Shown: positions 8,640 through 55,038 of the stretch, one piece after another | Layout of the letters: each line of letters starts with the position of its first letter | Numbering within the stretch: the stretch's first letter is position 1 | Position numbers and translations under genes: made by a program | From: Candidatus Aminicenantes bacterium | GTDB taxonomy: Bacteria > Acidobacteriota > Aminicenantia > UBA2199 | DNA: 64,000 nt | Direction: 5' to 3' | Assembly (NCBI GenBank): GCA_029938635.1 | Contig: JAOZUQ010000004.1 | Coordinates: forward strand, 8,513 to 72,512 | The notes under the pieces: model-generated | Told to the model about the DNA's origin: nothing | Seen by the model: only the letters and a program-made list of their open reading frames with translations | Databases searched by the model: none

Positions 8640-9401
8640 TTAGTTTCCCGGATCTTTAACACATCTGAATCCGAGCCAGGGGAGCGACCGTTTTACAGGA
8701 AAGGGTGTCCGGGTGGAATATTTTATATCATTTCTGATGTTAGTCCATGCACCACCTCTGATTACTCCTACCTTCTGGCTGTTCCTGTTTTTCCCGATCA
8801 ATAGATCAGTCGGATAAGCACTTGTTGTCCACTCGAAAATATTCCCTATATGATCATAAAATCCTATATCATTTGGTGGAGTTGAAAAAACAGGAGAAAT
8901 GGTTTTTCTCTCCATCTCAAAAAAAACACCGTTTTTTTCTTTGTAGAACATGGAAAGGGTCGATTGATAGTCTTTCTTCAATGCCCTTGCAGCAATTTCC
9001 CATTCCCATTCTGTCGGAAGCCTTTTGCCGGCGAATTCAGCATATCTCTCAGCATCTTTAAGACTAACTCCCGTTACCGGATTTGCCGGCATCTTTTCAG
9101 CCGAAGTTTTATTGAATTTCCCATCCGGCTGAAAGTCTGTTCTCTCCAAAAAAACAAGAAATTGGGAATTCGTAACAGGATGTATATCTATATAAAAACC
9201 TTCAAATACCCTCTTTGTGGGAGGAGATTTATCTCTGGAACCCTTGTCTCCGGTAAAATATTCACCTTTCGGAATGAAGATCATTGATGATCCTCCCGGT
9301 TTGAGAGATTCCAGATACCGGCTCTGATTCTTCAAATTCATATAGGATGATGGTAGCAGCATGTAAAATGAGAAAATTAAGATTAATAATTGTTTTTTCA
9401 T
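8640..9401 (-). CDS. FGE-sulfatase (SUMF1/formylglycine-generating-enzyme-like) domain protein, secreted.
   Basis: 253 aa with a signal peptide. Blocks GFYIDIHPVTNSQF, GVSLKDAERYAEFAGKRLPTEWEWEIAAR, GNIFEWT and RGGAWTN...GFRCV match the FGE-sulfatase domain family. 4-bp overlap with the upstream gene. Confidence 0.65.
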   Translation of the reverse strand: MKKQLLILIFSFYMLLPSSYMNLKNQSRYLESLKPGGSSMIFIPKGEYFTGDKGSRDKSPPTKRVFEGFYIDIHPVTNSQFLVFLERTDFQPDGKFNKTSAEKMPANPVTGVSLKDAERYAEFAGKRLPTEWEWEIAARALKKDYQSTLSMFYKEKNGVFFEMERKTISPVFSTPPNDIGFYDHIGNIFEWTTSAYPTDLLIGKNRNSQKVGVIRGGAWTNIRNDIKYSTRTPFPVKRSLPWLGFRCVKDPGN

Positions 9402-10708
9402 TTTTTCAGGTATTTCCTCATGTAAAAAAGGATCTTCTGTTGTTCAGAGCTTCTTATGAACCTCACGGCAGGGCCATTTTCGGACCTGGACTTCTCGAGA
9501 TCCAGAAATTCACGAAATTTCCTGAAGTTCATTAACATAATGAGATCAACTGATAGTTCATTGTTATTTACAGCTTTTATTGCGAAGTAATGATAGAAAC
9601 CCGGGAATAGGACTGCAATCCTTTCAGGATCGATATCAGGGTCTTCCCGAAGGAAATTGAGCGCTCCGTTAACTTCCATATCACAAAGATTTATCTTTGT
9701 CTTTTTTCTGCATGCCCTCTTTGTATTCGGAGCAAGAACAGCAAATCCTTTATCAACAAGAGTATTAATAAGTTCATCATAATAGAGCCTTGTTTCTGAT
9801 TCGGGGGGATATATCAGCAGAGCCGGAATTATTGATTTTCCGGCAGGTTTTCTGAATGTTGCATTTATCGGCATGTTATCGGTCGAAAAAAAGGTGATCA
9901 TATCCTTTGGTTTAGGGTTTTTCACAATCCCGTCAGCTTCCTTATCGATTCCGAATACTTCTGCAAAAAAATCGGCTATATGGTTTTGTATCTCAGGTAT
10001 TTCATCAAAAACAAATGTTCCGTGAGCGGGGAGTGTAAAAGGGGTTTCTGTTTTTTCAATCAGCAAATTTCTTGACAAGGGATTCAGGCTTCTTGCTGTA
10101 TATTCTTCCATAAGAAGATAATGGTTCCCGTCTAAAATACTTGCAATATTGAAAATAGCCAGGTCAGAGTTCCTTGTTATCCATTCCCTCGATTCTTCTC
10201 TCAGGATAGGGCCGGATATGATAACATTTGCTATTATGTCCGGATTGTTCTGTATTGCATACATCCCTGTCTCTACTGTAAAACTGGCTGTGATTATCCC
10301 CGTCTTCCCCTTCCTGGTAAAGTCAAGTGAGCTTAAGTATTCTAAAGCATCTTTCAGATCGGTTATTCTTTTAGCGCTGAGGTTTGCCCTCTGCCTGACA
10401 AAATTGGGCGCAAGTGTAACAATACCCTTTTTTGCAAACATCGGGAAAAGTTTTAAAAAATCATCGCGGTTCCCTGATAGTTGATGGAAGCATGCAACAG
10501 AAGGGTATTTGTTTTTCCCCGGATTCTCCGGTCTCAGCAGAAAAGCACTCAATTCAAATCCATCCCGGGTTTTAAAAGTAATTTCATCAATAACCCAGTC
10601 CCTCTCTTTTTTCATACTCAGATATACGAAAAGTGATGCAGCGAAAAGGAGGGCAAAGGTGAAAATTATAATTTTAATTGAACGGCTGTTTATTTTTATT
10701 GCTCTCAA
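9398..10708 (-). CDS. Membrane-anchored hypothetical protein with two tandem alpha/beta-hydrolase-like (dienelactone-hydrolase/S9-like) modules. No canonical GxSxG.
   Basis: 436 aa with an N-terminal TM anchor. Two ~200-aa halves each carry a 'P(S/A)(V/L)xxxH/P...(K)GxxxLAPN' core (…YPSVACFHQLSG…AKKGIVTLAPN / …IPALLIYPPE…VDKGFAVLAPN). 4-bp overlaps (ATGA-type) with both neighbours. Confidence 0.3.
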   Translation of the reverse strand: MRAIKINSRSIKIIIFTFALLFAASLFVYLSMKKERDWVIDEITFKTRDGFELSAFLLRPENPGKNKYPSVACFHQLSGNRDDFLKLFPMFAKKGIVTLAPNFVRQRANLSAKRITDLKDALEYLSSLDFTRKGKTGIITASFTVETGMYAIQNNPDIIANVIISGPILREESREWITRNSDLAIFNIASILDGNHYLLMEEYTARSLNPLSRNLLIEKTETPFTLPAHGTFVFDEIPEIQNHIADFFAEVFGIDKEADGIVKNPKPKDMITFFSTDNMPINATFRKPAGKSIIPALLIYPPESETRLYYDELINTLVDKGFAVLAPNTKRACRKKTKINLCDMEVNGALNFLREDPDIDPERIAVLFPGFYHYFAIKAVNNNELSVDLIMLMNFRKFREFLDLEKSRSENGPAVRFIRSSEQQKILFYMRKYLKK

Positions 10709-12054
10709 TTTCCGATATATCCCAGGGTTTCCAGCTTTTTCTGTTCTTCCGCTGTCAATTTTGTTTTTTGGGAGATGTGCTTGTTATCCTCTATCATACG
10801 GATATATCTTTTCAGTATCTTGTACATACTGAAGAACATTTTTTTATTTGAATCAAACTGATTGTTTTTTTCCGGTTTGTCCCCGCTAAGGTCATATAAT
10901 TCAAATTTGTTATTTTCAAAATCCCTGATTAGTTTCCAGCCTTTATGGACGATCGCACATTGATTATATAGAGTGTCATATTTTTTTTCATTAACCTCCA
11001 TAAAGATCGTCTCCGGCCCTTTTTCAGCCAGAATACTTGTTCCCCTGAAAGAATCCGGAATTTCGATCCCGGCAACATCCAGGATCGTTGGAGAAATATC
11101 AATATTTGAAAAGTTCGGGCGAATATTCGCATTTCTTTCAAAATCTTCGGGTAATTTTAGAATAAATGGAATTTTAGTCTGCTCATTAAACAATGACTGG
11201 CCGTGTCCGAGTGTTCCCCGTTCGCCAAATTCTTCTCCATGATCTGAAACTATCACAATTATTGTATTTTCATAAAGGTGCTGCTGTTTAAGTTTTTCGA
11301 TAACTCGTTCTATATACATGTCTGTAAATCTGATCTCGCTCCTGTAGCACTCATTAAAATAATCGAGGTCATTCTGAGAGAAAAGGTTTTTCTTTATGAT
11401 CTCAGCTTTTTCGGACTCATTCCTGTCGGGGAGAAAAGGGCCCGAATAAGAGGATTTGTTTTCATGATCAACATATCTGTAATGAGGGTCAAAATAGTGG
11501 AGGAACATGAAGAAAGGTTTCCCCCGGCTCTCCTCAATTATTTTTATTGCTTCGGAAGTGACAACCGGTGATGTTATGGAAAACAGATTGTTGTCCGAAG
11601 AATCGATCTTTTCCAGATATGTGTCAAAGCCCTGCCCGAGGCCATATTTTTTCTTCAGGAATATGTGTGTTATTACACCGTGGGTTTTGTATCCGTTCTC
11701 TTTTAGAACCTCTGCCAGAGTAATGAATTTTTCATCTATTTTAGAATTTCTCTTTACAACACCTATCTCAGAAGGGAATTTAGATGTGATCATTGATGAT
11801 ATCGAAGGGAGGGTCCAGGGCGCATTAGAATAAGATGCTCCGAAATATGCGGAATTATTTTTGAACAATTTTTTTAATGCCGGTGTTTCTCCGGACTTAT
11901 CGTTGCCCATATTCGTATGATCGGCTCTTAATGTATCAATTATTATGAAGACCACATTTGGTGGTGGATCTTTCTTGAAAATCATTAATCCGATGAAAAA
12001 AAAAGCTGTTATTAACAATATAACAAAGAATGATTTTTTCACTGATGATCTCAT
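10705..12054 (-). CDS. Sulfatase/alkaline-phosphatase superfamily (PF00884-type) protein, membrane-anchored. Thr at the nucleophile position.
   Basis: 449 aa. IIDTLRADHT metal-binding block, and SDHGEEFGERGTLGHG near the C-terminal end of the catalytic domain. The CxPxR position reads W-T-L-P-S-I (Thr, no Arg) by by-eye alignment. Ends ...KLETLGYIGN. Confidence 0.65.
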   Translation of the reverse strand: MRSSVKKSFFVILLITAFFFIGLMIFKKDPPPNVVFIIIDTLRADHTNMGNDKSGETPALKKLFKNNSAYFGASYSNAPWTLPSISSMITSKFPSEIGVVKRNSKIDEKFITLAEVLKENGYKTHGVITHIFLKKKYGLGQGFDTYLEKIDSSDNNLFSITSPVVTSEAIKIIEESRGKPFFMFLHYFDPHYRYVDHENKSSYSGPFLPDRNESEKAEIIKKNLFSQNDLDYFNECYRSEIRFTDMYIERVIEKLKQQHLYENTIIVIVSDHGEEFGERGTLGHGQSLFNEQTKIPFILKLPEDFERNANIRPNFSNIDISPTILDVAGIEIPDSFRGTSILAEKGPETIFMEVNEKKYDTLYNQCAIVHKGWKLIRDFENNKFELYDLSGDKPEKNNQFDSNKKMFFSMYKILKRYIRMIEDNKHISQKTKLTAEEQKKLETLGYIGN

Positions 12055-12167
12055 GTTTAAACTCTTGTTTTTACCCCTTTCACCTGCTTAAATAATATAT
12101 CATAGTGGTATGGCCTAATCAAGTCAGGTATACACGAAATGGATTAAAAGCTAATTGCAATCGGCTC

Positions 12168-14027
12168 TTATAAATAGCCCAGAGTTTTCAATTTCTCTCT
12201 ATCTTTATCAGTTACTTTCAGAGGGATGCCTTTTATTTTATGAGCAAAAACTTTCCTTTTTATCTGTCTTATCTTCTCTTTGAGATCTGTTAGAACTTTC
12301 TTAAACTTCGGATCTCCGGAGAGGTTGTTTCTTTCTGAAAAATCAGTACTAAGATCGTAAAGTTCATATTCTTTGTAGTCGGGGAGAGGAAATTTTGTGT
12401 AAAAAATATTCATTTCATCTGAATATTTAAAATTATATATGAGTTTATATTTCCCGTTGATCACAGATATCATCTGCGGTACCTGGGATAGCTTTAATTT
12501 TGACCCCATATGTATTAGAATCGACTCAATATCTCTCTCATTTCTGTAACTTTCAGGATCTTTCAGCAATGGTAGAAGTGATATCCCGTCTGTATCAAAT
12601 TCGTAAGAAATATCAAGGTAATCAAGAATAGTAGGAAGAATATCAATTATAGAACAATTCTGATTGATCCTATTCCCTTTATATTCTCCCGAAGGGAATT
12701 TTATCAGGAGGGGGATGTGAATAGTTTCATTATAGAGGTTGTTCCCATGCCCCCATGCTCCGTGTTCAAAGAATTCTTCTCCATGATCAGACATGAATAT
12801 TATCATCGAATTTTCATACATTCCTGATTTTTTCAAGGCATTGATGAAGTATCCGAACCAGTGATCGAAGAATTCAAGCTCGGCATCGTAAGAAGATATG
12901 ATCCCGCTCTTTTGTTTTTCACTTCTGGGCCTGTAAGTGAATTTACGATCATGCTCTGCCAGTTTGTATGGAAAAGAGAAACCTGTTGTATGTTCTGTTG
13001 TATGGACACTATCTGAATATTTCAGTCCGGGATGGAGTCTGAAAGGGCTGTGAACCTGATAGGTATGGAGGAAGTTAAAGGAATTGCCAAGGCCATTTGT
13101 TTTTGCCAATTTAATCGCATGTTCAAACATTTTCTTTGAAAATATAGAGGATCTCCACTTCCTTGAAATATATTGGTCAAATCCCCTGTAGAACCCATAT
13201 TTGTAATTCACAAATACTCCTTCATTCATACTTATTGAATATCTGTCTTCAGAGAGCAATTCTGTGAAAACTGGAATCTTTTCTGAAAGTCTCAAGTGCT
13301 TGTTGTAAACCCCGTGGTTGTAAAGATTTTTTGATGTAAAAAGGGATAAATGTGATGGTAACGTCCAGGAAGTTGTAGAAAAACAATTATCGAAAATCGC
13401 ACAATCCTCTGCGAACCTGTCAATATTCCTGGTTACATTCATGTCATATCCGTATATTCCCAGATGATCTGCCCTCAGTGTGTCTGCAACTATCAGGAAT
13501 ATCGGGTTTTTATTTCTGACCTTCAGATAAACCGGTTCAGATACAAATATCTCCGAATTTCCTTCAATATCTACGAATATTTCCGAAGAGCCGGTAAGTT
13601 TCAGGATCTGATCGAATTTAACACTTCTTCCTACTTTTGAGAATTCACTGACTGTTTTTCTTCTCCCGTTCGAGGCAAGGCTTACAATGATCTTCAGATC
13701 AGGATCATTGGTTTTTTTAAATTGTCCGATAGTAAAATATACAAAAGTATCACCCTTTAATTCAGGTTTGAATACCAGGGTTTTTGATTTTTTGATCTTA
13801 TAAAATTTTGATCTGTAAGTGGTTTTTTCCCTTTGAACAAAATGATATCTTGATTTACTATCTATGCCCAGAAGTGGTTTTATTCCCTTGTAATCTGATT
13901 TTTCAGACTCAGTTAATTCAAGTTTTCCCCTTTCGAATTTTATGTCTTCTTTTGAGCAGGATATCAGAATTGTAAGTAACATTAACAGGATGATCCATTT
14001 ATTCACTTTGTGAAAATTTTCCCTCAT
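12168..14027 (-). CDS. Sulfatase/alkaline-phosphatase superfamily lipoprotein with a ~170-aa N-terminal extension. Thr-type.
   Basis: 619 aa. Lipobox LISC. IVADTLRADHLG and SDHGEEFFEHGAWGHG blocks. Active-site position S-W-T-L-P-S-H. Ends ...KLKTLGYL. GGAGGA RBS. Confidence 0.6.
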   Translation of the reverse strand: MRENFHKVNKWIILLMLLTILISCSKEDIKFERGKLELTESEKSDYKGIKPLLGIDSKSRYHFVQREKTTYRSKFYKIKKSKTLVFKPELKGDTFVYFTIGQFKKTNDPDLKIIVSLASNGRRKTVSEFSKVGRSVKFDQILKLTGSSEIFVDIEGNSEIFVSEPVYLKVRNKNPIFLIVADTLRADHLGIYGYDMNVTRNIDRFAEDCAIFDNCFSTTSWTLPSHLSLFTSKNLYNHGVYNKHLRLSEKIPVFTELLSEDRYSISMNEGVFVNYKYGFYRGFDQYISRKWRSSIFSKKMFEHAIKLAKTNGLGNSFNFLHTYQVHSPFRLHPGLKYSDSVHTTEHTTGFSFPYKLAEHDRKFTYRPRSEKQKSGIISSYDAELEFFDHWFGYFINALKKSGMYENSMIIFMSDHGEEFFEHGAWGHGNNLYNETIHIPLLIKFPSGEYKGNRINQNCSIIDILPTILDYLDISYEFDTDGISLLPLLKDPESYRNERDIESILIHMGSKLKLSQVPQMISVINGKYKLIYNFKYSDEMNIFYTKFPLPDYKEYELYDLSTDFSERNNLSGDPKFKKVLTDLKEKIRQIKRKVFAHKIKGIPLKVTDKDREKLKTLGYL

Positions 14028-14118
14028 TTATCCTCCGGTCACAATTATTGCCATCAACAATTTCTTCATGATCCTGATACTATTATAACATATACTTCAA
14101 GTTCTCCGGCCCGGGCAA

Positions 14119-14135
14119 GTGACAATTATTGTCAC
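14119..14135. promoter_or_regulatory. Perfect 8-1-8 palindrome GTGACAAT-T-ATTGTCAC in a divergent intergenic region. Candidate operator.
   Basis: Read directly from the sequence. A related half-site, GTCACAATTATTG, lies at 14038..14050, abutting the RBS of the minus-strand sulfatase-like gene. Confidence 0.35.
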
Positions 14136-14264
14136 TATTGTATGGTTTTTGTAAAAATGGTTGAAAAAAAAATCTGAATATGTAATACTATAGTGGGATT
14201 TCGGATTGGCATGAAAGTTGCATTGTAAGTAATGGTTAAAAAAAGCACATTGAATGGAGCATTT

Positions 14265-17200
14265 ATGAAAAAGCTAATATTTCTCTCTTTTATTATATTT
14301 ATCTCATTTTTTACCATAAATAGTCAGACTGTAAGCTCTCTCGGGATCACAGGGACCTATTATGACATAAGAGCAGATAATAACGGTAATATCCATATTC
14401 TATGGATCGATAACGGATGGGCTAAGTATGGACAGATCGTAAACCGACAGGTTGTCAACCAGGTCACTATAAATGTTGTTGACTGGAATGAGGTGAATTA
14501 TAGAAAGGTTCGCCCCAGGCTGTCTGTAAAACCGGATGGCAGCGAGGTCCATTTTGTATGGGTAACACCTTTTTTCAAATCAAAGGACTTCATACACTGC
14601 TGGAGAGATTCGGGAGGGACCTGGAGAAGGGAGAAAATAGTCACAGTTAAAAACTTTTGTCTTGCTCCTACTTTTACGGTCGATTCGAGCGGAGTGTACC
14701 ATGCTGTTGTTATTGAAGATACCGGCGGTTCCCTTCTTCATCCTGTTGCCTATTGGCGGAAAGCTCCGGGCGGGGGATGGATAAAGAAGACAAATCTCGC
14801 TCCTGCAACAAAAGAACATTTATGGCCGAATCTTTTTACCGATATGAACGGTAACGTACATATCACCTGGGATGAGGATAAAGATATAATCAAATACAGG
14901 TATGCCGCTTCCGGGGGAGATCTTTCGACAAGTGCAACAATGACATTATCTAATCTCCATCCCCATAATAAGCAGAGTGAAATATTTGCCGATGCATCGG
15001 GAAATGTTTATGTTGCGGCTCTCTCATATTATACCCCCGGGACCCAGGGTGGAATTGATTATTGGGTCAAACCGGTCGGCGGATCTTTTTCAACATCGGT
15101 GAGAATTTCCGGCCCGGATTTTCCTTTAAAGGAATATTTCCCTTTTCCGGCAGTCATTGCACGATCACCTGACATGGTAGCTGTTTCCTGGGCTCAGACT
15201 AAATATCTAACACAACCTGCTGCGATAGGTGTTGCTGTCTATGACGGTGCCTGGCAGCCTGTAGAGTATCTTTCTACAACAGCAAACTTCAAGGCAGATA
15301 CAAGAACAACGATGGCAATGAACGATGAAACTGCATTTATGGTTTGGAGAGAAGGAGACCAGATGTTATATCTGGCAACATTTGATTATGCACTTTTCGG
15401 AGTCCTTTCCCCGAATGGAGGAGAGAACTGGAGTATTAATAGAACTTATGAGATTCGATGGAATCTTGAGAATGCAACAGGCAATGTTAATATAAACCTC
15501 TATAAAAATAGTGTAAACCTGGGCCCGGTTGCATCTGATGTAGCAGATGCCGGTTCTTTCAATTGGACTATCAATACTCTTGAAAGTGGAGCCTCTATTG
15601 AGACAGGAGTAGATTATCAGATCGAAGTTAGAGCAGTGAATGATTCTGATTCTGATATGTCAAGTGCTTTTTTTACTATTGATTATGCATTTGAAATTAC
15701 TTCTCCTGTTTCCAGTAGTGCCTGGGAGATCGGACAGAACTATAACATTACATGGACTAGTCCCGCGATTTCATCACCAACTGTAAAGTTAAATATATAC
15801 AAAGATTCAATACTTGTTGAAAATTTTGTTGAACAGCTTACCGGCCCCAATTCCGGTTCGTACAGCTGGACAATTCCATCTTCTTATGTAGCGGGGAATT
15901 ATATAATAAGATTAAAAACAGAAGACGGCCTTCTTATTGATGACAGTGACTTATTTAGTATTACCGGAACTTCAACTCTTCCATCGATCACGGTAACCTC
16001 TCCGACCTCAAGTGATACCTGGGACAAGGAGAGTACGTACGACATAACCTGGGAAAAAACCGGGACCCAATCTGCTAATGTGAAAATAAATGTATTCAGA
16101 AATTCGATCGATGTTGCAAATTTTGTGGAACAATTAACCGGGCCGAATTCCGGATCCTACAGTTGGACGATCCCCGGGACCTATGCTACCGGTAATTATA
16201 TCCTCAGGCTTAAGACCGATGACGGGCTTTTATCCGATGATAGTGATGTTTTTGCCATCTCAGGCGGCGGTTCGACCACTCCGTCGCTCACGATCACTTC
16301 TCCCACTTCGAGTGATACCTGGGACAAAGGAAGCACGTATAACATAACATGGGACAGGAATGGTACATTGTCGGCCAATATAAAGATCAATGTATATAAA
16401 GATTCAATACTGGCTGGAAATTTTATTGAGCAGTTAACAGGACCGAATTCCGGTACATACAGCTGGACCATCCCCGGTACCTATACAGCAGGGAATTATA
16501 TTCTCAGGATGAAGACAGATGATAATCTGGTAACAGATGACAGTGATGTGTTTGTTATTGCAGAGAACTCAACAACTCCCTCTATCACGATCACTTCTCC
16601 CACTTCGAGTGATACCTGGGACAAAGGAAGCACGTATAACATAACATGGGACAGGAATGGTACATTGTCGGCCAATATAAAGATCAATGTATATAAAGAT
16701 TCAATCCTGGTTGAAAATTTTATTGAGCAGTTAACAGGCCCCAATTCGGGTACCTACAGCTGGACCATTCCGGGAACTTATACAGCAGGGAACTATATTC
16801 TCAGGATGAAAACAGACGATAATCTGGTGTCAGATGACAGTGATGTTTTCCAGATCACTGACGGAGGAAGTGTAACACCTACAATGACCATAATTTCTCC
16901 TTCGTCATGCAGCTCCTGGCCGAGAAATAATACTTATACAATAACCTGGCTGAAAGACGGAACGATGTCAGCTAATGTTATAGTTAACATTTATAAAGAT
17001 TCAATTGATGTGGGGAATTTTGTTGAACAGTTGGCCGGTCCTAACACAGGATCCATGATCTGGGCAATTCCTAGTTATTATGAGGCCGGGAATTACATCA
17101 TAAGATTGAAAACTGATGATGACCAGGTCTCAGATGACAGTGATCTGTTTGCGGTTAACAGTTCTATAGTGAGTACTCCGAAAATAACTGTAACTTCTCC

Positions 17201-17465
17201 AACATCATGTGATACCTGGAGTAAACTGAAAACCTATAAAATTGCATGGTCAAAGGCCGGGACAATGTCTGATAATGTGAAAATAAATATTTACAAAGAT
17301 TCAATAGAGACCCCAAATTTTGTTCAGCAGCTCACCGGGCCTAATACAGGATCTATTGACTGGACCATTCCCGGAGCTTATGTGAACGGGAATTATATTT
17401 TACGTATAAAAACTGTTGATAGTGCAGTTATCGGTGATAGTAATGTATTTGTAGTAACAAACTAA
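14265..17465 (+). CDS. Large secreted repeat protein: beta-propeller-like N-terminal region plus about seven tandem ~99-aa Ig-like (Kre9/KNH-like) domains.
   Basis: Signal peptide MKKLIFLSFIIFISFFTINSQ (an in-frame upstream ATG at 14232 is also possible). The N-terminal ~380 aa carry repeated 'DxxGNxHxxW'-type blades. Then come repeated units ITSPTSSDTWDKGSTYNITW...NIKINVYKDSI...NFIEQLTGPNSGTYSWTIPGTYTAGNYILRMKTDD...SDDSDVF, separated by Ser/Thr-rich linkers. Confidence 0.6.
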   Translation: MKKLIFLSFIIFISFFTINSQTVSSLGITGTYYDIRADNNGNIHILWIDNGWAKYGQIVNRQVVNQVTINVVDWNEVNYRKVRPRLSVKPDGSEVHFVWVTPFFKSKDFIHCWRDSGGTWRREKIVTVKNFCLAPTFTVDSSGVYHAVVIEDTGGSLLHPVAYWRKAPGGGWIKKTNLAPATKEHLWPNLFTDMNGNVHITWDEDKDIIKYRYAASGGDLSTSATMTLSNLHPHNKQSEIFADASGNVYVAALSYYTPGTQGGIDYWVKPVGGSFSTSVRISGPDFPLKEYFPFPAVIARSPDMVAVSWAQTKYLTQPAAIGVAVYDGAWQPVEYLSTTANFKADTRTTMAMNDETAFMVWREGDQMLYLATFDYALFGVLSPNGGENWSINRTYEIRWNLENATGNVNINLYKNSVNLGPVASDVADAGSFNWTINTLESGASIETGVDYQIEVRAVNDSDSDMSSAFFTIDYAFEITSPVSSSAWEIGQNYNITWTSPAISSPTVKLNIYKDSILVENFVEQLTGPNSGSYSWTIPSSYVAGNYIIRLKTEDGLLIDDSDLFSITGTSTLPSITVTSPTSSDTWDKESTYDITWEKTGTQSANVKINVFRNSIDVANFVEQLTGPNSGSYSWTIPGTYATGNYILRLKTDDGLLSDDSDVFAISGGGSTTPSLTITSPTSSDTWDKGSTYNITWDRNGTLSANIKINVYKDSILAGNFIEQLTGPNSGTYSWTIPGTYTAGNYILRMKTDDNLVTDDSDVFVIAENSTTPSITITSPTSSDTWDKGSTYNITWDRNGTLSANIKINVYKDSILVENFIEQLTGPNSGTYSWTIPGTYTAGNYILRMKTDDNLVSDDSDVFQITDGGSVTPTMTIISPSSCSSWPRNNTYTITWLKDGTMSANVIVNIYKDSIDVGNFVEQLAGPNTGSMIWAIPSYYEAGNYIIRLKTDDDQVSDDSDLFAVNSSIVSTPKITVTSPTSCDTWSKLKTYKIAWSKAGTMSDNVKINIYKDSIETPNFVQQLTGPNTGSIDWTIPGAYVNGNYILRIKTVDSAVIGDSNVFVVTN
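15400..17460 (+). repeat. In-frame tandem coding repeats, period about 297 bp (99 aa), about 7 units. Units starting at 16291 and 16588 share about 125 bp of perfect identity.
   Basis: Direct sequence comparison: 16291..~16415 is identical to 16588..~16712, with about 90% identity over the rest of the unit. Flanking units are about 75-80% identical. Reflected in the near-identical antisense shadow ORFs 16196..16471 and 16496..16744. Confidence 0.7.
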
Positions 17466-17603: not shown

Positions 17604-17629
17604 TAAAGATGATAAACAAGGAGGAAATC

Positions 17630-28161: not shown

Positions 28162-28409
28162 TCTATATATATTATCATGAGAAATGTTTTTTTTGAATTA
28201 AGGAATAATTTCTGGCATTACCCCATTTTTTCATATCATATCTCTGTAAATTACTGCCTCCGGATAACGTCATGTCCATCATCATTTCCAACATGAACTT
28301 CTACTCTAAAATATGGGGTGATGACAAAATAGTTTGATTAGATAAGCAATATATTTCATTTTTTTTATGCTATAATTTCAAATTGAAAAATGCTATCAGG
28401 TTTTCCAAT

Positions 28410-29972
28410 ATGAGAATCGAACTAAAGAAAAAAAAATATTCTATCATCGGATTTTTTCTATTATTAATTCTAATAATTCTTTTTCTTGAAAAACCAGTAA
28501 ATAATTTAATATCAAAGAATAAACAACTAAAGAAAAATATTATTCTGATTGTTTCCGATGCATTACGAAAAGATATTCTCGGATGTTATGGTGGCAAAGC
28601 AAAAACTCCAAATATAGATAAACTGGCCAAAAGAGGAATATTATTTGAAAATGCTTATACAATATCTCCTGTGACAATCCCTTCCTCTGTAGTTTTATTA
28701 ACAGGGAACCATTCGGGATCATACTCACTTTTTTCTGCTAAAGTTAATAATACTACAAAAAAGTTTTTTTTCCATGTTAATAACAAGGATGAACTATTCT
28801 CTGAAATTCTCAGAAAGAATGGTTATGATGTTAAAATGGATATCGAAAACCCCTTGGCTAAAAGTTCAAATAATACTCAGGGATTTGAAAATCTCTACAG
28901 TTTTAAATTAATTAAAAAATTCGATATTTTTAAAATGTTTAATCTTTTTGTAAATAATCAGATTAAAAACATAGAAAAAAAAATCGGAATATTAAAAAGT
29001 GTTCATGAACTCCCTCGCGGTCATTCCAATGATTATTTAAGGACTTATAGCATTCTTGACTATATTCTTACTATTCCAAATAAAAAGAACTTCTTTATTC
29101 TGAAATGGTTTATGGATCCACATGCTCCTTATAACCCTTTAAAAAAATTTAGGGAGAAAATAAAATTCAATCCAGTAGATCTTATAGAAAACAAAAATTA
29201 TTATTCTCGAAATAATGTTAGAAAACTCTTAGAAAGAGAAAAAAAAGGAAAGGAATTTACAAAAGAAGAAATTTCCTATATCAAATCTCTTTATATAGCT
29301 GAAATTGAGTCCGTTGACGAAAGAGTGGGATACATAATGAAAGCGCTGGAAATTAAAAACCTTTTAAACAATACAATTATTATTTTTACTTCAGATCACG
29401 GTGAATTCTTTAACGAGCATGGAGAATTGGGTCATAGTTTATTATATTATGATCAGCTTATACGAATTCCGCTTATTATTTCAGGATCTGGTATACCTGC
29501 CGGAGAAAGAATAGTTAGCAGAGTTTCAAATATGGATATTATTCCTACCCTGAAAGAATTGATGAAAATGAATTATAAAAGTAAAATGTCAGGGAAAAGT
29601 TTCAAAGATCTGCTATTAAATCAGGAATCAAATCCAAATCAAAAAACAATCTATTTTGATACTCTCGGGCATTCTGTAAAAAGAGTTACTGCGAGAGATG
29701 CAATTTTGTATAAAGAATTTAAGCTGATTATTACAAGAAATAAGGGTAAGACAAAATATGAACTATATAATATAATAAGCGACCCGGCAGAGGAGAATAA
29801 TCTTGCTTCATTTAATTTACCGCTTATCAGGAAAATGCTCAGTGAAGTAATAAAAAACAGGAATAGCATAAGAAACCAATACAAAATCAATCTGAAAAAA
29901 AAAGATAATACAAAACTTGATAAGAAGTGGGAAAAAACAAAAAAACACTTAAAAACTCTGGGATATATTTAA
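28410..29972 (+). CDS. Sulfatase/alkaline-phosphatase superfamily protein, membrane-anchored. Thr-type.
   Basis: IILIVSDALRKD, TSDHGEFFNEHGELGHS. Active-site position V-T-I-P-S-S-VVLLTGNH. Ends ...KTLGYI. Start ambiguous: ATG 28410 (MRIELKKKK…) or TTG 28383. Confidence 0.6.
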   Translation: MRIELKKKKYSIIGFFLLLILIILFLEKPVNNLISKNKQLKKNIILIVSDALRKDILGCYGGKAKTPNIDKLAKRGILFENAYTISPVTIPSSVVLLTGNHSGSYSLFSAKVNNTTKKFFFHVNNKDELFSEILRKNGYDVKMDIENPLAKSSNNTQGFENLYSFKLIKKFDIFKMFNLFVNNQIKNIEKKIGILKSVHELPRGHSNDYLRTYSILDYILTIPNKKNFFILKWFMDPHAPYNPLKKFREKIKFNPVDLIENKNYYSRNNVRKLLEREKKGKEFTKEEISYIKSLYIAEIESVDERVGYIMKALEIKNLLNNTIIIFTSDHGEFFNEHGELGHSLLYYDQLIRIPLIISGSGIPAGERIVSRVSNMDIIPTLKELMKMNYKSKMSGKSFKDLLLNQESNPNQKTIYFDTLGHSVKRVTARDAILYKEFKLIITRNKGKTKYELYNIISDPAEENNLASFNLPLIRKMLSEVIKNRNSIRNQYKINLKKKDNTKLDKKWEKTKKHLKTLGYI

Positions 29973-54078: not shown

Positions 54079-55038
54079 ATGGTTAAGAAAATATTATGTA
54101 TAGATGCCGATATGGCAGCTGTTCAGGAGTGTGTAAATGGACTGAGGAAACTAGAACCTGAAATTCTCACTGATTTCTGTGAATCGCTGGATGAAGGACA
54201 GGAACTTTTTAAAGAGAACTATTATGGACTGATAATAATTGATCTTTCTATATTGAACAAAGATATACTCGAATTCATTGAGGATATAAGGAGAGGGAAT
54301 TTTTACGGAGATATTGTCTTCACGGGCAACTATAAGGATCCGTCAACATTAAAGAAGATCCAATTGTTAAAAGAGATTGAAGTTTTGTTAAAGCCGTTTG
54401 ATATTGAATGGTTCGTTTCCAAGGTAAACAGGTATTTCAGGGAAAATATCTCGATCGGGAACAGAATAGATTCCATCGGGCCCTGTTTTTTTATCCGTTT
54501 GCTGAACCTCGGAAGCTGTACCATTACCTGCAAAATATCAAAAGATGATAAGACGGGAATGATATTTTTTGAGACTGGCCAGATAGTTAATGCAAAGTCC
54601 TGGAAGAACTCCGGAGAACTTGCACTTGTTGATCTGCTTGATCTTGCTGATGCAAGGATTGATATAATCGGGGATAAAAAATCAATATCAAGAAAGATCA
54701 ATATGGATTTTAATTCGCTCATTTCAGTCGTATCATCTCAGTCTTCAAAAGGTTGTGTTGACAAAGTGACAGATGAAGGACCTGATAGTTCAGGCTTCAT
54801 TGAGTTTATTATTGATGAGATAAAAAAGAGCGGGGGAATTAACGGGGAGATGATTGTCAATGATGCGGTTATGGCAATGGGATTGAGCACATTTTCATTT
54901 CCGTCGGAAAGCGAAATAGACCTTATCGAACGTGTTTCCGGAGATTTTAAGGACAAGTCAAAAGTATTGAAATTTAAAAAGAATATGATGTCTTATCTGA
55001 AAGACAGAGAGATAGGAAAGATCAGGAAGGGAGGTTGA
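54079..55038 (+). CDS. Receiver-domain-like regulatory protein with a DUF4388-like central domain.
   Basis: 319 aa. The N-terminal ~120 aa have a CheY-like layout (ILCIDAD…IIIDL…LKP). A middle segment (…GPCFFIRLLNLGSCTITCKISKDDKTGMIFFETGQIV…) resembles DUF4388. No HTH seen. Confidence 0.35.
   Translation: MVKKILCIDADMAAVQECVNGLRKLEPEILTDFCESLDEGQELFKENYYGLIIIDLSILNKDILEFIEDIRRGNFYGDIVFTGNYKDPSTLKKIQLLKEIEVLLKPFDIEWFVSKVNRYFRENISIGNRIDSIGPCFFIRLLNLGSCTITCKISKDDKTGMIFFETGQIVNAKSWKNSGELALVDLLDLADARIDIIGDKKSISRKINMDFNSLISVVSSQSSKGCVDKVTDEGPDSSGFIEFIIDEIKKSGGINGEMIVNDAVMAMGLSTFSFPSESEIDLIERVSGDFKDKSKVLKFKKNMMSYLKDREIGKIRKGG

Follow-up and report, generated by a model that had tools for sequence, protein, structure and literature searches.

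A conserved palindrome ahead of a secreted repeat-protein gene in Candidatus Aminicenantes is a probable PilR-type upstream activating sequence for a sigma-54 promoter

We suggest that the palindrome GTGACAATTATTGTCAC (GTGACAAT-T-ATTGTCAC; positions 14119..14135, unstranded) is an upstream activating sequence (UAS) to which a PilR-type enhancer-binding protein binds as a dimer, and that through this site the protein drives, by way of sigma-54, the gene for a secreted protein with Kre9_KNH repeats. We regard this as the probable explanation of the site. All positions are those of the window, by which we mean the whole 64-kb stretch of DNA that was analysed. What we saw directly are the elements themselves, how they are conserved and spaced, and that the palindrome is identical to sites in pilR-pilA promoters, some of them from the same phylum. 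From these we infer three things: binding by PilR or by a close paralogue that recognises the same DNA, the use of sigma-54, and control by activation. PilR belongs to the NtrC family of response regulators and combines a receiver domain with an AAA+ module for sigma-54 activation and an HTH of the Fis type; its partner is normally the kinase PilS, and it normally switches on type IV pilin genes.

The earlier note on this DNA had drawn attention to a perfect 8-1-8 inverted repeat at 14119..14135, and reading the sequence confirms it. Counting the flanking A and T extends the repeat to 9-1-9 (AGTGACAAT-T-ATTGTCACT, 14118-14136). Such a palindrome is by itself not rare: there are three perfect 8-1-8 palindromes in the 64-kb window, and first-order Markov simulations give an expectation of 2.3 +/- 1.6. 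Since they occur at the chance rate, the case for the main palindrome depends on conservation and on its context in other genomes. Conservation was followed in seven orthologous Aminicenantes loci, which together with the window make eight sequences; their sulfatases are 65-79% identical to those of the window and the divergent gene order is the same at all seven. Related genomes include GCA_030626145.1, GCA_942492175.1 and GCA_964400545.1. In the alignment of the eight intergenic sequences, AGTGACAAT-NN-TTGTCAC is invariant in every one, and 16 of the 18 columns of the palindrome are invariant against a mean column identity of 79%, while the flanks, about 25 columns on each side, contain no invariant column at all. 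One orthologue (L008) has the palindrome as a variant, GTGACAATTTTTGTCAC. The alignment thus supports a conserved, predicted protein-binding site in the divergent regulatory region. We considered an RNA element and rejected it, as neither the window nor the intergenic region has an Rfam match and the hairpin that the palindrome can form has a fold z-score of only -1.8, which is not significant for stability. A terminator was looked for here and none was found.

To the right of the palindrome, a predicted sigma-54 (-24/-12) promoter, TTGGCATGAAAGTTGCA, is located at 14206..14222 on the plus strand, with its GG at 14208-14209 and its GC at 14220-14221. The extended -24/-12 consensus is mrNrYTGGCACG-N4-TTGCW, and the promoter fits it well. 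Its core, TGGCATGAAAGTTGCA, is the sole exact match to TGGCA-N6-TTGCW in the window, where 0.19 matches would be expected. In the intergenic alignment none of the eight sequences departs from TTGGCA or TTGC, and the spacer and the next base vary; fixed GG and GC elements around a free spacer are the pattern expected of a sigma-54 promoter. The promoter faces the repeat-protein gene and is 43 nt ahead of the ATG at 14265, which has an RBS; transcription is predicted to start at about 14233, 32 nt 5' of this ATG. We take the start codon to be ATG 14265, which is conserved among the orthologues, follows a recognisable RBS (GGAG) and marks the beginning of the signal peptide; ATG 14232 is not conserved. 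We note that the latter, the start of the longest open reading frame, coincides with the predicted sigma-54 transcription start. The intergenic length of 204 bp given previously holds only if translation begins at 14232; measured from the conserved start, the region is 237 bp long.

The spacing of the two elements is that of an enhancer and its promoter. Counted from the transcription start predicted for sigma-54, the centre of the palindrome (14127) is at about -106, and the 71 nt between palindrome and TGGCA fall within the approximately 70-150 bp 5' of the promoter at which a UAS is placed, with helical phasing kept. Seven of the orthologous loci were measured: five have a gap of 71 nt, L007 has 72 nt and L006 has 61 nt; in L008 it is about 70 nt, read off the alignment. 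The intergenic region of L006 (GCA_942492175.1, 5785-6000) has a deletion of 10-11 bp between palindrome and promoter. As the difference between 61 and 71 nt is one helical turn, the face-of-helix relation is preserved.

A consensus scan also picked out a conserved block between the UAS and the promoter (14161..14189, plus strand), which reads as a sigma-70-like TTGAAA-N17-AATACT with a TG before it and an A-tract. All eight sequences share TTGAA and TATGTAATACTA-A without change (14161-14193), and each has a T/A tract. The block may be a second promoter, of the sigma-70 type, with a start at about 14196, or it may be an architectural or bending element; the repeat-protein gene may therefore have, or even depend on, a sigma-70 start. 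Within the block, the 15 nt of TATGTAATACTATAG (14180-14194) are invariant in all eight sequences, which exceeds the needs of a -10 element; this stretch may serve as a further site for a protein, or may help to bend the DNA that separates enhancer and promoter. Inspected by eye, the interval between UAS and promoter contains no good match to the IHF site WATCAA-N4-TTR.

The identity of the probable binding protein comes from other genomes. A scan for exact copies of the 17-mer, with one genome per species, returned at least 120 loci in many phyla, all counts being lower bounds, and most of the exact copies are expected to be chance matches. The earlier note had proposed that the motif would lose its meaning if it occurred at random intragenic positions genome-wide with no promoter enrichment; with most exact copies due to chance this test discriminates poorly, and about one-fifth of the matches listed sit in pilA promoters. 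Among the 120 matches listed, 26 have a prepilin N-terminus (GFTLIEL) encoded 140-450 bp downstream and 13 also encode a GAFTGA enhancer-binding protein. An exact TGGCA-N6-TTGC is found within 160 bp at about 15 non-orthologous loci among the matches listed, where about 0.15 would be expected. In eight of the listed loci that are associated with a pilin, the enhancer-binding protein is encoded 700-870 bp beyond the palindrome on the opposite side from the pilin, so that the order is pilR, palindrome, sigma-54 promoter, pilA. The palindrome of the window matches in sequence these sites between pilR and pilA. At L072 a histidine kinase gene is also present directly upstream; the regulator of this locus is an NtrC-family REC-AAA+-HTH protein whose homologues are named PilR by JGI and whose closest relative (91% identical) is labelled Aminicenantes. 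In Ca. Aminicenantes UBA2190 (L098) and UBA6072 (L130) the exact palindrome is followed by a 71-nt gap, TGGCAC-N5-TTGC and then the pilin gene, and in Aminicenantes pilA promoters the gap from palindrome to TGGCA is 69-71 nt, like the 71 nt of the window. A metagenome scan for the palindrome together with the sigma-54 motif found pilin genes in at least 10 of 16 loci. Viral contigs served as a control; none of their 16 exact copies has a pilin neighbour, and the association with pilins is thus no artefact of the motif search.

A motif-independent test gave the same picture. Four loci (L148, L152, L156 and L159) were retrieved through PilR homologues, one of the four query proteins (P0194) being labelled Aminicenantes. 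At each of these loci the genes run pilB-pilT-pilC-pilS(6TM_PilS)-pilR-pilA; their GC content is 0.41-0.47 and they are not assignable to the lineage of the window. In all four, the spacer between pilR and pilA contains palindrome-like sites followed by TTGGCAC-N5-TTGCA. The best sites of three of them have two mismatches each (L152: GTGACAATAAATGTCAA, L156: GTGCCAAAAATTGTCAC, L159: GTGACAATAATTGTCGT), and L148 has two sites, ATGTCAATTATTGGCAT and TTGACAAAAAATGTCAA, that are more degenerate. Across phyla, the regulators adjacent to the palindrome share the motif LG-x-x-F/Y-R-x-x-R-Y in their C-terminal HTH, which fits a single conserved DNA specificity. In most pilA promoters the site is accompanied by another 20-22 bp away. 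The window is not of this tandem type: at +/-20-22 bp it and most of its orthologues show seven or more mismatches (six in L006), and its sole extra site is a weak one at -81, to the left of the palindrome.

The palindrome and a sigma-54 promoter also occur together ahead of genes that do not encode pilins. In L068 (Ca. Poribacteria, 1649-1745) the pair precedes genes for flagellar rod proteins with FlgF/FlgG-like N-termini, and in L012 (Deltaproteobacteria, 1599-1741) a gene for a small secreted protein; both copies of the palindrome are exact, and these loci indicate that the box serves wider regulons in other phyla. Three metagenome contigs (L133, L138 and L146), which are of low GC content and phage-like, have the same pair before small hypothetical genes, with tandem sites in L138, and the pair is also found on the IMG/VR viral contigs L169 and L175. 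These phage-like and viral occurrences may represent mobile elements that borrow the PilR/sigma-54 circuit of their host. Two bins labelled as 'uncultured Clostridia' (L046 and L067, GC content 0.61-0.63) have the same promoter layout as Ca. Aminicenantes UBA2190 and UBA6072. In L067 the pilin N-terminus is the same as in the two Aminicenantes genomes and in L046 it is almost the same, and the label is probably wrong.

Following the standard scheme for enhancer-binding proteins, we propose that a phosphorylated regulator dimer would bind at 14119-14135, oligomerise and contact sigma-54 RNA polymerase waiting in a closed complex at 14206-22, with the A/T-rich conserved DNA in between bending to permit the contact. 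ATP hydrolysis would then open the promoter and the secreted Kre9_KNH repeat-protein gene would be transcribed. The three Kre9_KNH genes that are 3' of the target gene (at 17609, 19187 and 20559) are possibly transcribed with it; no additional sigma-54 promoter was found ahead of any of the three at one mismatch or fewer. A search with Pfam and NCBIfam of essentially all open reading frames of at least 120 aa in the 64-kb window found no enhancer-binding protein, no sigma factor (sigma-54 included) and no HTH regulator, and the flanks of the seven orthologous loci contain no HTH-type regulator. PilS-PilR is encoded in other Aminicenantes and, judging from the phylum, we assume that PilR and RpoN are present in the genome of the window. 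The receiver protein at 54079 (open reading frame 54079-55038) had been put forward as a candidate regulator. It is unsuitable, as its Response_reg match is below the Pfam cut-off and is accompanied by DUF4388, and no AAA+ or DNA-binding domain was detected.

The gene on the other side of the palindrome is the first of a divergent operon (8640..14027, minus strand) which Pfam shows to encode a lipoprotein-type sulfatase of 619 aa, a sulfatase of 449 aa, a 436-aa protein of unknown function and an FGE-type sulfatase-maturing enzyme. The operon has an extended -10 element, TGTTATAAT, at 14082..14090 on the minus strand, with a predicted transcription start at about 14075; T-TG-TATAAT is invariant in all eight sequences and has no recognisable -35. 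The centre of the palindrome is at about -52 from this start and the palindrome overlaps no core element. Most likely it is this extended -10 promoter, of the sigma-70 type, that drives the sulfatase operon. The earlier note had taken the palindrome to be an operator through which one factor co-regulates the glycan-modifying operon and the surface-protein gene. Of this, a predicted regulatory site for a dimeric protein stands; its geometry and its relatives are those of a sigma-54 enhancer, not of a generic operator that overlaps a sigma-70 promoter, and co-regulation of the sulfatases in the form proposed is not supported, given that the operon has its own invariant TGTTATAAT and the palindrome lies off its core elements. 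That the bound activator, or a weak second site, influences the sulfatase promoter is speculative.

The weak second site is the near-copy of one arm that had been noticed at 14038..14050. The sequence there is indeed GTCACAATTATTG, one base from the RBS of the minus-strand gene (CCTCC, 14032-14036), and this apparent half-site belongs to a full-length degenerate copy, GTCACAATTATTGCCAT (14038..14054, unstranded), that agrees with the palindrome at 13 of 16 specified positions and has three mismatches. The copy is 81 bp from the main palindrome, within what is predicted to be the 5' leader of the sulfatase transcript (about +21 to +37). In the whole 64-kb window only 14119-14135 and 14038-14054 match the palindrome with three mismatches or fewer, against 0.33 expected, and the chance expectation of a second site this good within 110 bp is about 0.001; the copy thus exceeds chance. 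It resembles the weaker, half-degenerate sites of pilA promoters, such as ATGTCAATTATTGGCAT in L148. Among the orthologues the corresponding sequence survives in the closest relatives only, with four mismatches in L002 and five, which is marginal, in L004, and it is absent from the others. A further short palindrome that had been reported at 14107..14115, CCGGCCCGG, is present one base to the left, at 14106..14114 (unstranded). It lies outside the element and is not conserved in the orthologous alignment, and we have ruled it out as a second operator on this ground.

These observations allow other explanations of the palindrome to be weighed. That it is a chance palindrome, or a structural RNA or DNA hairpin with no regulatory role, seems to us extremely improbable: the chance-level number of 8-1-8 palindromes in the window and the possible hairpin fold are what could be said for it, but the site is invariant between variable flanks in orthologues whose proteins are only 65-79% identical, it lies upstream of all predicted transcription starts, and neither the z-score of -1.8 nor the Rfam search favours a structured element. 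A conventional operator, at which a dimeric repressor or activator of the sigma-70 type would control both divergent sigma-70 promoters (TGTTATAAT and TTGAAA-17-AATACT), deserves more attention, as both of these promoters are conserved, the palindrome is placed between them (about -52 from the sulfatase start and about -69 from the repeat-gene start) and there is a weak second copy in the sulfatase leader. However, no -35, -10 or start site falls within the palindrome, which is 32 nt upstream of the sulfatase -10 and ends 25 nt before TTGAAA; the only second site is weak, poorly conserved and in a leader; neither the window nor any orthologue has such a regulator gene nearby; and the identical sequence is tied elsewhere to sigma-54 promoters and pilR, while here an invariant sigma-54 promoter is present at the canonical distance. 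We therefore consider an operator of this kind improbable.

A dual function of the site is a further candidate. The PilR-type protein would activate the sigma-54 promoter and at the same time modulate the sulfatase promoter by bridging the two sites 81 bp apart, and the outcome would be a switch between surface protein and sulfatases. In the window and in L002 the main and weak sites bracket the sulfatase -10 (TGTTATAAT), the weak site looks like the degenerate sites of pilA promoters, and a second site as good as this within 110 bp would seldom (about 0.001) be there by chance. Against this, six of the eight lineages have lost or never had a clear weak site, which persists in the window and L002 and, marginally, in one of the six, L004; if it is real it is a recent addition, and bracketing would permit looping or repression without demonstrating either. 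We judge a dual function unlikely. An extension of the same idea, which we also judge unlikely, is a single bidirectional enhancer: the ancient PilS-PilR pilin circuit would have gained a surface-glycan module in a low-GC clade of Aminicenantes, switching on a cluster of Kre9_KNH surface proteins by way of sigma-54 and, in some lineages, looping to the weak second site to shut off the sulfatase/FGE operon. If it were true, surface contact sensed by the pilus would be coupled to remodelling of a sulfated matrix, and GTGACAAT-N-ATTGTCAC would be a pan-bacterial PilR box.

A PilR-type UAS acting on the sigma-54 promoter alone has close precedents. Control of pilA by PilS-PilR and sigma-54 in Pseudomonas aeruginosa, Geobacter sulfurreducens, Myxococcus xanthus and Xanthomonas has the same layout, with an inverted-repeat enhancer about 100 bp upstream of a GG-N10-GC promoter, and the identical 17-mer lies between pilR and pilA in Proteobacteria, Acidobacteriota/Aminicenantes and other phyla. 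The window differs from these systems in that its gene encodes Kre9_KNH repeats, there is one strong site, pilSR is not adjacent and a sulfatase operon diverges from the same region. NtrC-family promoters in general (NtrC-glnA, DctD, ZraR) share the palindromic UAS, the A/T-rich bendable spacer, the -24/-12 element and the helical phase (61 versus 71 nt in our orthologues), but the DNA specificity in the window is that of pilA promoters and differs from the consensus for NtrC, TGCACC-N5-GGTGCA, and from that for NifA, TGT-N10-ACA. The outer GTGAC...GTCAC arms recall matS, the site of MatP in enterobacteria (GTGACRNYGTCAC). This candidate was rejected, as matS (GTGAC-RNY-GTCAC, 13 bp) has a centre of 3 bp where the palindrome has one of 7 bp (AATTATT), and neither the promoter context nor the association with pilA fits it. 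To our knowledge, MatP is restricted to Enterobacteria and Vibrio.

We found no description of the window palindrome in the searchable literature, where GTGACAAT and ATTGTCAC returned unrelated papers and MatP/matS. The PilR literature that we examined describes TGT-N11-ACA or GTCT elements and gives no logo. For P. aeruginosa PilR the consensus is quoted as TGT-N11-ACA (PMC8035640) or as TGT-N11-AGA with GTCT elements (PMC6058289). The window palindrome differs from this consensus; in its core, TGTC/GACA, it does agree with elements of the GTCT/TGTC type given for the same protein (PMC6058289). Extended regulons of PilR include non-pilin genes: predicted sites in Geobacter sulfurreducens, surface proteins of Dichelobacter nodosus, fleSR of P. 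aeruginosa and lchD of Lysobacter (PMC6058289, PMC8035640). The window resembles these in placing a secreted, surface-type protein under a PilR-type site; those targets are experimental or come from cultured Proteobacteria, whereas ours comes from comparative genomics of an uncultured phylum. Kre9_KNH repeats beside sulfatases are not reported as a PilR target in the literature examined. As PilR is known to act on non-pilin surface and envelope genes, the window gene would be a new target of a known regulatory kind.

The regulatory principle is a textbook one and the finding extends known biology. Its use is that a conserved locus whose function is unknown, in a phylum (Aminicenantes) that has no cultured model, now has a testable class of regulator, PilS-PilR acting with sigma-54, and it suggests that Kre9_KNH repeat proteins belong to the same programme of surface behaviour as type IV pili. 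The data from other phyla also provide a working definition of the PilR box as GTGACAAT-N-ATTGTCAC, in most cases as tandem copies 20-22 bp apart, 60-130 nt upstream of a -24/-12 promoter, with which PilR regulons could be predicted in metagenome-assembled genomes.

A large cluster of polysaccharide genes at 22998-46084 has a markedly low GC content (0.28-0.30 versus about 0.38) and encodes three sulfotransferases, methyltransferases, several glycosyltransferases, a Wzx-type flippase, Wzy/O-antigen-ligase-like proteins, a priming sugar transferase and another sulfatase (28383-29972). Together with the sulfatase/FGE operon, the cluster suggests a sulfated exopolysaccharide system.

The target gene itself (14265..17465, plus strand) encodes a secreted protein of 1066 aa that, according to Pfam and its translation, has a signal peptide and at least seven Ig-like repeats of the Kre9_KNH family. 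The signal peptide is of the Sec type, there is no prepilin motif and the product is not a pilin. A search of solved structures gave no match to the protein. The N-terminal region of approximately 375 aa matches no Pfam family and no solved structure. In this part of the protein (window 14265-15400) the pattern G-x-(V/I)-H-(I/F/A)-x-W recurs every 45-60 residues or so, and this recurrence suggests a putative beta-propeller-like domain ahead of the Kre9_KNH repeats.
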